Sequence record: OX461087
Strand: one strand, 5' to 3'
Source: Escherichia phage EcoIv28_Lewi
DNA: 48,435 bases
The notes under the pieces are model-generated. The model was not told where the DNA came from. It worked only from the letters and a program-made list of their open reading frames with translations, and searched no databases. Both the position numbers and the translations under genes were made by a program. Positions within the stretch are counted from its first letter, which is position 1; each line of letters opens with the position of its first letter. This document shows positions 37,433-39,166 of the stretch, piece after piece.

Positions 37433-37459
37433 CAAAGCCCCTTTCGGGGCTTTTTCTTT
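37433..37459. terminator. bidirectional rho-independent terminator
   Basis: Hairpin AAAGCCCC-TTTC-GGGGCTTT plus T-run. Confidence 0.6.
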
Positions 37460-37460
37460 A

Positions 37461-38177
37461 TCACGATACAGTGCAAGCTGTACTGATGATAATTTCCGGG
37501 TCAGTAGACGAGTCAGTCACCGTTACGGTGTATACGCCAGCGGTCGGGCTTGCTAGTGAAGCGCCAGATTCGCCACCAACAACTACACCATCTTTGCGCC
37601 ACACGTAGGTGTAAGGAGCAACACCACCTTCAACAGCAACAGTTAACGGGCTGCCAGTCGTGCCAGTTGATTGCAGGTCGGTAGTGAATGCCAGAGGCTC
37701 AAGGCTTTCGACGGTAACGCTGTCAGAATCGTAAACCTTGAACTCAAGGCTGCCAGTCACAATGTCGTTTGTGCCGCCTTCGTAGCTGATGCTGGTGATG
37801 TTGCAGTATGCGGTAACGATAGTTGCACCAGTTACCTGACGCACCCACAAAGAAGGCTGGCGACGCGCTTTCAGTTCAGTAGCGTAAATCTCAACCAGAC
37901 GATGGAAGCCAAACTCATCGCTCGGGTCATTCTTGCGGATTTCCACCTCTGCACTGATGGTCATATCAGAGCTGGTAACGAGAGTGGAAACAAAACCGCC
38001 AGCGGTATCCGCTTCAGACGTAGTGGTCTGCGGCGAGTAGTCAACACCTTTACTGGTGGTTGATCCTAAATATTTCCAGTCTTCTGCATCCGGAACTGCG
38101 TCACCGCACCCTTCAGCAAGGAACAGTCGTGTCATGCGACCGACCAGAACGCCTTTATCATTTGCACAAATAGCCAT
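37461..38177 (-). CDS. major tail protein with C-terminal Ig-like domain
   Basis: 238 aa; C-terminus (GVAPYTYVWRKDGVVVGG...YTVTVTD) looks like a bacterial Ig-like domain; own extended -10 TGATATAAT upstream. Confidence 0.7.
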   Translation of the reverse strand: MAICANDKGVLVGRMTRLFLAEGCGDAVPDAEDWKYLGSTTSKGVDYSPQTTTSEADTAGGFVSTLVTSSDMTISAEVEIRKNDPSDEFGFHRLVEIYATELKARRQPSLWVRQVTGATIVTAYCNITSISYEGGTNDIVTGSLEFKVYDSDSVTVESLEPLAFTTDLQSTGTTGSPLTVAVEGGVAPYTYVWRKDGVVVGGESGASLASPTAGVYTVTVTDSSTDPEIIISTACTVS

Positions 38178-38228
38178 TTCGATCTCCGAATTGTGTTAGC
38201 TGCTAACGTGGTGATTATATCACAGGTG

Positions 38229-38257
38229 TTGACAGTGATTATTTTGTGGTGTAGATT
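38229..38257 (+). promoter_or_regulatory. sigma70-like promoter TTGACA-N17-TAGATT driving the non-coding region and tRNA
   Basis: Consensus hexamers with 17-nt spacer. Confidence 0.55.
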
Positions 38258-38261
38258 GTAT

Positions 38262-38686
38262 TTCAGATAGTTTTCGTGAGCGACTTTGCGGACTTTTTAG
38301 AAACTGACCACAAAGATAAATGCAAACGATGATGTTGTTCTGATGGCGGCGTAATAGCCTAAAATTAGCGGGGTATTCCAGTTCCCTGTAACAGAATCTG
38401 GCGCAGTGGCCCGCTGTGATTAATAATGGGCACACAACAGGTAAGAGTACTGAGTCGGTAATCGTGAAGAGTCGGCGTGCCTGGTTAGCCAGTGCTCTTA
38501 CCGTTGTGGTAATGCCATCTTGATTATTTGGATAGGTTTGCATCCATTATTATGCCAGTTTCAGTTAATCGCGAAACGCCACAACACTTAATATCCAGCA
38601 TTATCGCAATCATATGTAGGGGTATGTATGGGTTACGGGGCTGGATATTAAGAAAGCACGCTGGCAATGCTTAAACCAGCACTTAT
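38262..38686 (+). ncRNA. candidate structured non-coding RNA / tRNA leader
   Basis: ~425 nt with no credible ORF; 13-bp perfect inverted repeat (38587..38599 with 38640..38652) and a second long-range stem. Confidence 0.3.
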
Positions 38687-38763
38687 GGACGCGTAGCTTA
38701 ATTGGTTAAAGCAACCGACTCATAATCGGCTGATTGAAGGTTCAAATCCGTCCGTGTCCACCA
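38687..38763 (+). tRNA. tRNA, anticodon CAT (Met, or Ile if lysidine-modified)
   Basis: Hand-folded cloverleaf: acceptor GGACGCG/CGTGTCC, anticodon loop CTCATAA, T-loop TTCAAAT, encoded 3' CCA. Confidence 0.8.
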
Positions 38764-38767
38764 AATT

Positions 38768-38797
38768 AAAAGCCGCTTCACGCGGCTTTATTTATTT
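38768..38797. terminator. bidirectional rho-independent terminator
   Basis: Hairpin AAAGCCGC-TTCA-CGCGGCTTT plus T-run. Confidence 0.6.
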
Positions 38798-39166
38798 CAC
38801 GACCCGCAAAAGCAACTCATGAACAGGCCGTTTTTCTTCCGTTAACATCGGCCTTCCGAGTGGCGCTTGCAACTGGATGTAGTTAACGCATGAATCAATC
38901 GGATGCGTCTTGATGTATTCGATAATCTCATTGGCTTTCGCATCAACATCCGCAACGTTGTACTGTCCTTGTTTCCCAACAACATACAACGAGAAATAGA
39001 AATCCCCACCTAGACCATCCATAACCTGCGTGCCACCATTGGATTGCAGAACAATAAATTGCTCGTTGCCGTCTTCGGTGTCATTCCAGAACTGCAACTG
39101 CGAATTCCAGCCATCATATAATCCGGCATCCTGAAGATATGCATCAACCAGTTCAAGCATGTTCAC
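38792..39166 (-). CDS. tail terminator / neck protein (putative)
   Basis: 124 aa; position between connector genes and major tail. Confidence 0.4.
   Translation of the reverse strand: MNMLELVDAYLQDAGLYDGWNSQLQFWNDTEDGNEQFIVLQSNGGTQVMDGLGGDFYFSLYVVGKQGQYNVADVDAKANEIIEYIKTHPIDSCVNYIQLQAPLGRPMLTEEKRPVHELLLRVVK

Follow-up and report, generated by a model that had tools for sequence, protein, structure and literature searches.

A tmRNA-type coding module without a tRNA-like domain in Escherichia phage EcoIv28_Lewi and other enterobacterial mobile elements

The window analysed is a 48,435-nt stretch of DNA of Escherichia phage EcoIv28_Lewi (sequence record OX461087), and the element described is an RNA gene on its plus strand, lying between a promoter-like site (38229–38257) and a tRNA (38687–38763). 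The first ~180 nt of this gene are, on comparative evidence, an mRNA-like domain of the type found in transfer-messenger RNA (tmRNA), with a translated tag frame; this main point was missed by the first-pass annotation, which had rightly listed a phage small RNA among its options for what is a conserved phage RNA gene. The core module, a 'headless' coding piece of 178 nt (38269–38446, plus strand), was recognised by family covariance model R1, Rfam and blastn. It is judged homologous to the coding, mRNA-like part of tmRNA and to be horizontally mobile. tmRNA is thought to work only with its tRNA half and messenger half joined, covalently or by base pairing. The family keeps a translated messenger half without the tRNA half, in well-studied P1, HK620, Felix-O1-like, Vi1-like and BASEL phages. 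Genome annotation leaves the locus blank or fills it with minus-strand open reading frames (ORFs) that are probably spurious.

Coding module and tag frame

Elements of the module stand in the order pseudoknot 1, U(-5)A(-4), GCA resume codon, 10-codon tag, stop codons in a helix-5 hairpin, pseudoknot 2, hairpin. The region reads AUAAAU-GCA AAC GAU GAU GUU GUU CUG AUG GCG GCG UAA UAG. The tag frame (38322–38357, plus strand) encodes ANDDVVLMAA, the E. coli tag being ANDENYALAA for comparison. It is degron-like, opens with a resume codon and ends at a stop; no in-frame start codon is present. N-terminal AND and C-terminal AA or VA of a tag are the determinants for SspB and ClpX.

From pattern scans of IMG/VR and from GenBank loci, 158 regex matches were collected, with 36 distinct tag sequences among them. 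The 10-codon tag is carried by 157 of the 158 matches, the remaining one, without a stop, being a false positive. All 36 variants have exactly 10 codons from GCA or GCU to the stop (TAA, TGA or TAG). Peptides include ANDDVVLMAA, ANDDLMMVAA, ANDDLMLMAA, ANEEMYLAVA, ANDEQFLAVA, ANDNTFLAVA, ANDNVFLAVA, ANDNAYLMVA, ANDNEMRAAA and ANDNAVRVAA. The pattern is AN[DE]x xx[LMR][AMV][AV]A, with N-terminal AND and C-terminal AA or VA conserved. Changes at codon positions 1, 2 and 3 number 24, 19 and 47 on a minimum spanning tree of the 36 sequences. Synonymous changes make up 43 of 90 (48%), against 23% expected (binomial p=2.8e-7); the other two frames give 13% and 22%. Codon 10 is GCN, with each of the four third-position bases seen, and changes in the stop codon remain stops (TAA, TGA, TAG). 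Since changes concentrate at third positions, synonymous changes are in excess and the 10-codon length is constant, the tag frame is taken to be translated by ribosomes and under purifying selection at the protein level. The overlapping AUG frame encodes peptides of 5–12 residues, variable in sequence. An ordinary small ORF is ruled out by the missing start codon, by this variability of the AUG-frame peptides and by AUA/GUA at -6, which is not universal.

U85/A86 upstream of the resume codon sets the frame on E. coli tmRNA. The corresponding dinucleotide U(-5)A(-4) lies at 38317–38318 (plus strand), upstream of the tag, and is present in all inspected members but one, Serratia phage 2050H1, where C(-5)A(-4) is found instead. 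A frame-setting role of A86 of E. coli tmRNA is reported (PMC2481249).

The fold is supported by two alignments, a 36-sequence MAFFT alignment (sequence only) and a 63-sequence covariance-model alignment. For the 63 sequences, 93.1% of cells are paired versus 82.5% in shuffles, 0 of 500 shuffles reaching the observed value, and compensatory changes occur at 19 of 28 pairs. With the 3' partner slid by 1–3 columns as a control, pairing falls to 31–50%. The pseudoknot 1 analogue (38269–38315, plus strand) consists of stem A (38269–74/38300–05) and stem B (38284–91/38308–15). Compensatory changes occur at 3 of the 7 pairs of stem B, which is 92% paired. Stem A is formable in 59 of 63 members and has one-sided changes only, no compensatory ones. 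The helix-5 analogue encloses the stop codons (38340–38368, plus strand). Its outer stem (38340–44/38364–68) is 100% paired with 3 of 4 pairs compensatory; its inner stem (38348–50/38357–59) is 80% paired. Pseudoknot 2 (38369–38401, plus strand) has stem S1 (38369–73/38384–88; 99.7% paired, 4 of 5 pairs compensatory), stem S2 (38378–81/38398–401; outside the covariance model, 93.7% paired, 4 of 4 pairs compensatory) and the loop UAACAGAAU, which it has in common with permuted tmRNAs from three viral contigs (L038, L025, L108). A hairpin with the conserved loop GUGAUUAAUAA follows (38409–38431, plus strand; 98.8% paired, 4 of 4 pairs compensatory). As in tmRNA, the tag is thus preceded by one pseudoknot and followed by a helix 5 and another pseudoknot; covariation supports them with the exception of stem A, which is conserved only.

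The 5' motif AGUUUUCGU (38269–38277, plus strand) is kept as (N)GUUUUCG in every collected member, a constancy that is partly a selection criterion, members having been collected by anchoring on GTTTTCG. In two variants (L040, L089) a hairpin takes the place of pseudoknot 1, yet AGUUUUCGU is kept; it presumably has a role of its own. It resembles (A/U)(A/G)GUUUCGAC in the 5' tRNA domain of permuted tmRNAs, and candidate roles are those of a D-loop analogue, of a site for SmpB or of one for RNase E (RN|WUU).

Model R1 scores 189 bits at 38269–38446, the sole copy in the window. An Rfam scan of 38225–38405 at relaxed threshold matches alpha_tmRNA (E=8e-7) and tmRNA_permuted (E=0.002), and seven further loci match tmRNA Rfam models comparably. 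Other Rfam 15 families, including large phage-associated RNAs, give no match, the remaining hits having E>=2. In the reciprocal search, R1 matches the tag regions of tmRNAs called by ARAGORN at E=5e-7 to 3e-5; these are L108, L018, L027, L094, L122 and L025, called at default settings, and L038, called at relaxed threshold only.

Relatives, distribution and the missing tRNA-like domain

The closest relatives are permuted two-piece tmRNAs of betaproteobacterial type (RF01850, RF04321; L038, L025 and L108 from IMG/VR). Module and relatives have in common pseudoknot 1, UAAAU-GCA, a tag of ~10 codons of the form AND/ANE...LMAA, stops in a hairpin and the pseudoknot 2 loop AACAGAAUC. In an alignment with the three contigs UAAAU-GCAAACGA, UGAUGGCGGCGUAA and the 5' motif (A/G)GUUU(U)CG are also shared. 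Their tags are ANEDAFLMAA (L038), ANDERFLMAA (L025) and ANDESAYLMAA (L108). Unlike permuted tmRNA, the module is without the 7-nt 5' acceptor strand and without the acceptor piece (T arm, 3' acceptor strand, CCA), and is followed by hairpin cassettes with no tail that pairs with an acceptor piece. Its carriers are phages of Enterobacterales, whose hosts have a one-piece tmRNA, whereas the permuted relatives are two-piece. The family looks like a coding piece that has lost the 7-nt acceptor strand and the acceptor piece, and L025, L038 and L108 are candidates for its source lineage.

Like E. coli SsrA (RF00023), the module has a GCA resume codon without a start codon, a 10-residue tag ANDxxxxxAA, U(-5)A(-4), a pseudoknot ahead of the tag and stop codons in helix 5. 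Unlike SsrA, it has no tRNA-like domain (TLD), no P2 helix and fewer pseudoknots. Sequence similarity to E. coli ssrA is weak (R1, E=0.06) and is not found by blastn. The TLD-only tmRNA of mycobacteriophage DS6A is also a phage-borne partial tmRNA, but it keeps the TLD without a tag, whereas the module is the opposite half, a tag without a TLD (PMC4131195, PMC11915505). Bxz1-group mycobacteriophages, Bacillus phage G and the OM43 methylophage (two-piece) also have tmRNA genes (PMC4131195, PMC9004378). These have a full TLD and are found by ARAGORN, which none of the 158 module instances is. In the tmRNA database papers, phage ssrA is reported only from mycobacteriophages, Bacillus phage G and DS6A, and the categories include 'no CDS' forms and none lacking the TLD (PMC4131195, PMC11915505). 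No prior description of the module, as a phage tmRNA-like or TLD-less RNA, was found in the searchable literature, nor any occurrence of the six tag strings tested.

No TLD is found by default ARAGORN in the window or in the 158 instances; 43 tmRNAs are called in the same loci. Calls of 'tmRNAp' by relaxed ARAGORN were rejected: they differ from lineage to lineage and join the module to nearby tRNAs or T arms that have no relation to it. T arms that precede a strand able to pair with the 5' end of the module were sought systematically, and matches occurred at chance level only. In a scan of the window no further tRNA-like element turned up, nor a further T arm with CCACCA after it. The alanine-chargeable half of tmRNA (acceptor stem with G3.U70, T arm, 3' CCA) is thus not found with the module, and no acceptor piece of a two-piece tmRNA is found in the genome. 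Directly upstream are the abutting promoter and then the start of the minus-strand major tail gene. No phage SmpB was found in a search of the genome with an SmpB query sequence.

In Felixounavirus Si3 (L139, ~865–948) an unannotated D-arm-less derivative of tRNA-Arg(UCU) stands directly 3' of the tag module. Its acceptor stem CGGGGCG/CGCCUCG (G3.U70), A73 and encoded CCA make up the alanine identity set. In Ackermannviridae (L143, phage dinky, ~870–1100; L009, ~1190–1460; L014) conserved elements without a tRNA call lie 3' of the module. One is a ~125-nt RNA, GCCGUU.../...AACGGC-U-CCA, with a T arm; the other is a 16–18-bp stem (CACAUCU...) around a T-loop hairpin, with compensatory changes between genera.

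The first ~190 nt of the RNA are found by blastn in 843 phage records of at least 9 families or genera. In Felixounavirus and Mooglevirus the module lies within tRNA arrays. Vi1-like phages are among the carriers. It occurs in Ackermannviridae (Kuttervirus, Taipeivirus, Miltonvirus), in Gamaleyavirus, Kyungwonvirus, Loessnervirus and Grimontviridae, in Klebsiella siphoviruses and in the Skatevirus/Caminolopintovirus/Deseoctovirus group, to which the phage of the window belongs. Lederbergvirus HK620 has the module between pR'/qut and the late terminator, without a tRNA, and phage C1 has the whole RNA without a tRNA. In P1 and P7 it lies in the ban operon leader, beside the annotated 'dicF-like region' and ahead of trnA and trnT; in P1 (L007, 1093–1380) the module, with tag ANDDLMMVAA, starts just after the 'dicF-like region' and a terminator-like hairpin. 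The P1 module should be expressed on induction because of its position in the C1-controlled ban operon leader. Among complete E. coli genomes, 656 of 5426 (12%) carry the module, at 150 chromosomal and 554 plasmid places where nothing is annotated. Two chromosomal places inspected are lambdoid prophages, with the module between Q and the holin gene. Listed E. coli plasmids with the module are ~80–145 kb and match at the P1-type level of identity. A scan of bacterial genomes gave three true matches, all in prophages of Enterobacterales, and four chance matches.

Possible role in ribosome rescue

Proposed here is a headless tmRNA coding piece that would work with a tRNA-like partner in trans, a reading for and against which the balance is about even; partner and mechanism are put forward by inference. 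RNase P, cutting at the tRNA, would free the RNA from its primary transcript, and the long cassette hairpins and the RG|UUUU 5' motif would probably be cut by RNase III or RNase E. The freed RNA would then act as messenger in a split tmRNA. Once an alanyl tRNA-like partner and host SmpB have entered a stalled ribosome, it would resume on the phage GCA codon, and the phage tag would be added in place of the host ANDENYALAA. The most probable partner would be host Ala-tmRNA-SmpB, docking via the D-loop-like 5' motif and the SmpB-binding upstream sequence of the phage RNA. The phage might gain by deciding what becomes of rescued proteins, via SspB/ClpX determinants that differ, or by extra rescue capacity in infection. 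More tentative is the wider proposal of a mobile 'tag cassette' RNA of enterobacterial phages, P1-type plasmid prophages and lambdoid prophages that reprograms ribosome rescue and is loaded in trans, by host Ala-tmRNA-SmpB or by a TLD-free route. If use in trans is true, phages rewrite the degradation tag on products of stalled ribosomes and trans-translation accepts a foreign template; it would amount to template switching of a new kind in translation and add a new layer to the conflict between phage and host.

Several points weigh against a coding piece acting in trans. The module falls short of the Rfam gathering scores (alpha_tmRNA, 30.4 bits against 50; tmRNA_permuted, 27.3 against 47), although both E-values are significant. 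No trans partner for the module was found, and among the loci the Si3 element is the sole case of G3.U70, A73 and CCA near it. Global duplexfold of the module against E. coli ssrA is no better than for a shuffled sequence. Compatibility with host SmpB and TLD is assumed, the closest relatives being two-piece tmRNAs of betaproteobacterial type and the hosts having one-piece tmRNA. No route is known by which RNA that lacks an aminoacylated tRNA-like domain gets into a stalled ribosome. Antisense pairing to host tmRNA was considered, the leader GCGACUUUGCGG being complementary to E. coli CCGCAAA..GUCGC, and rejected: the segment forms a covarying internal stem and is absent in Felix-O1-like copies.

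Unlikely, although it would fit a module without a TLD, is an untranslated tmRNA mimic or decoy that inhibits host trans-translation, or draws it off, by binding SmpB, ribosomal protein S1, RNase R or the empty mRNA channel. It would be a counterpart to the TLD-only tmRNA of DS6A. Elements related to SmpB are kept (D-loop-like 5' motif, U(-5)A(-4)), and a TLD-only molecule that inhibits tmRNA, perhaps by SmpB titration, is a precedent (PMC4131195, PMC11915505). A decoy needs no frame, however, and the codon periodicity, the synonymous excess (p=2.8e-7), the fixed 10 codons and the kept stops speak for translation. If true, it would be a new kind of anti-rescue factor. Trans use and decoy alike bear on why some phages depend on ssrA.

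Translation without any TLD, yielding a free decapeptide or tag, is quite improbable. Here pseudoknot 1 and the upstream sequence would set GCA in the A site by loading that is like an internal ribosome entry site or into an empty channel, followed by ordinary decoding by Ala-tRNA, and the free ssrA-like peptide could saturate ClpXP/SspB. The tag is read as translated though neither TLD nor start codon is present, the pseudoknot lies 6 nt ahead of the Ala codon, and the AND and AA/VA ends are conserved, as expected of SspB/ClpX determinants. Such a route is without bacterial precedent, and the simple hairpin that replaces pseudoknot 1 in L040 and L089 speaks against a precise anticodon mimic.

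A relic, that is, a decaying and now functionless fragment of an ancestral phage two-piece tmRNA in tRNA/small-RNA islands, is very unlikely. It would account for the loss of acceptor strand and acceptor piece and for the position in hypervariable RNA islands, but not for purifying selection within the headless family itself, for four helices maintained by compensatory changes, or for a module that has reached P1 plasmids and phage families unrelated to one another with its boundaries intact.

Locus layout and downstream hairpin cassettes

The locus is assigned, from its sequence features, as a phage RNA operon of promoter-like site, ~420-nt structured region, tRNA(CAU) and terminator. The promoter reported by the first-pass annotation, a sigma-70 site, is present at 38229–38257 (plus strand): TTGACA (38229–34), a 17-nt spacer and TAGATT (38252–57). 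It matches 10 of 12 consensus positions in the promoter scan, which found 2 promoter-like matches in the region against 3.1 expected, so that a single match is no better than chance. The site lies a few bases 5' of the structured region and is conserved, unchanged across five relatives. Klebsiella phages ZX4 and ZCKP8 and Mooglevirus 3HA14 have independent sigma-70-like promoters at equal spacing to the conserved 5' motif of the RNA. The promoters in three lineages put the 5' end of the RNA at most ~5 nt ahead of AGUUUUCG / (N)GUUUUCG, and the transcription start in the window is inferred at ~38264–38265. The minimum free energy of 38265–38686 (422 nt) is -134.4 kcal/mol (z=-2.78), with 0 of 100 shuffles as stable.

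Across ~423 nt of the region no conserved ORF is found on either strand, in agreement with the ORF-free stretch described earlier. A 107-aa minus-strand ORF differs in length, start and frame among 15 relatives. Some of the minus-strand ORFs are annotated as hypothetical CDSs in the record of Bas80 (L001). Minus-strand hypothetical CDSs over the RNA gene stand in several GenBank records (Bas80, 1541–2044; L141, 587–1232; L140, 693–782). They are probably spurious; length, frame and sequence of the minus-strand ORFs are not kept among the 15 relatives. Flanking genes, both on the minus strand, are those of the major tail protein (37461–38177) and a head-tail or minor capsid protein (38792–39166).

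The terminal tRNA and terminator of the earlier annotation are present. The tRNA (38687–38763, plus strand) has anticodon CAU (Met or Ile2) and is called tRNA-Met(CAT) by ARAGORN. With 63.4 bits against a gathering score of 29 (RF00005), it is the only Rfam hit to reach threshold; the hits to alpha_tmRNA and tmRNA_permuted stay below the gathering scores of those models. Read from sequence, its position 3 pair is A3-U70 and the alanine identity pair is absent. The tRNA is considered a co-transcribed neighbour outside the module. The orthologous tRNA of ZCEC08 (L005, 1377–1453) has anticodon AAU (Ile), which suggests that the CAU tRNA may be of the Ile2 type (lysidine), not Met. The relative KFS-SE2 (L003, 1422–2062) has an insertion directly 3' of tRNA(CAU), with one more tRNA, tRNA-Arg(UCU), and a gene for an HNH endonuclease, which marks the locus as a hot spot for mobile insertions. 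The intrinsic terminator (38769–38789, plus strand; terminator scan) is kept in relatives; in phage C1 it stands directly 3' of the RNA, with no tRNA between.

A canonical same-strand tRNA lies within 1 kb in only 38 of 104 well-flanked contexts, and its identity varies. The RNA is an independent gene and no tRNA leader, because of these contexts and of C1, which has no tRNA. An obligatory link of the module with one particular tRNA is ruled out by the same 38 of 104 contexts and their differing tRNAs.

In segment 38433–38686 hairpin cassettes follow one another, their basal arms conserved and their tips hypervariable. Cassette 1 (38433–38508, plus strand) is CACAAC-A-GGUAAGAGUACUG ... CAGUGCUCUUACC-GUUGUG and includes the second long-range stem noted earlier (38440–38452/38490–38502). 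Its general motif is CACAAC-A-GGUAAG, an 8-bp variable stem, an insert of 27–209 nt, the stem and CUU(U/A)CC-GUUGUG; inserts differ even among close relatives. The pattern has 134 matches over both strands, with 52 arm variants, some matches being the reverse complement of one cassette as the arms are quasi-palindromic. Over the variable 8 bp, the 39 distinct arm pairs on the tag strand contain 239 Watson-Crick, 55 G.U and 5 A.C pairs, and this excess of G.U over A.C indicates an RNA helix of the plus strand, no DNA cruciform. A tRNA precursor leader, DNA-level hairpins (origin, packaging or recombination site) or minus-strand protein genes, of which the first-pass annotation had offered the leader and a cis-acting DNA site, would agree with the co-transcribed tRNA, the perfect inverted repeats and the hypothetical CDSs of Bas80, but are highly improbable, given the RNA without a tRNA in C1 and HK620, tRNA identities that differ between contexts, the strand-specific G.U pairs and minus-strand ORFs kept neither in length, frame nor sequence.

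The mid cassette (38503–38586, plus strand), GUUGUGG ... CCACAAC-A, is a degenerate tRNA-like element. In the Akira-type loci L189 and L199 the same arms enclose a 9-bp acceptor-like stem, a D arm and a T arm GCAGG-UUCGAUU-CCUGU, the anticodon arm being replaced by an insert of ~75 nt; in the window GUUUC-AGUUAAUCGC-GAAAC stands at the T-arm position. The earlier suggestion of decayed tRNA genes is borne out for 38503–38586, where Akira-type relatives hold a tRNA-like domain, and fails for the rest. The two possible pairings of GUUGUGG, upstream to close cassette 1 or downstream, suggest alternative structures.

The 13-bp perfect inverted repeat with a 40-nt loop is also confirmed, as a helix (38587–38599/38640–38652) with a conserved loop at 38587–38652 (plus strand). 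In 15 relatives it has two compensatory double changes (U-A to C-G, G-C to U-A) and three wobble-compatible single changes, none disrupting pairing; it appears in the minimum-free-energy fold. A possible 3' pseudoknot, AGCA/UGCU with GCUGG/CCAGC (38655–38680, plus strand), can be read from the sequence. Its GCUGG/CCAGC hairpin also appears in the minimum-free-energy fold; relatives show no variation over the segment and hence no covariation signal.

In P1, lambdoid prophages and siphoviruses, cassettes lie on the flanks of tag modules and of tRNAs. Further ones are found in P1 (L007) at 1366, 1805 and 2307, in L017 at 2420–2480 and 2839–2925, and in L011. The arms of the cassettes show covariation and keep a U.U or A.A mismatch. 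A cassette is possibly a hairpin for RNase III processing or for stability, and the long cassette helices are plausible RNase III substrates. Outside the RNA gene, at 37434–37453 of the window, a bidirectional terminator-like hairpin, AAAGCCCC-TTTC-GGGGCTTT, separates plus-strand small ORFs from the minus-strand major tail gene.

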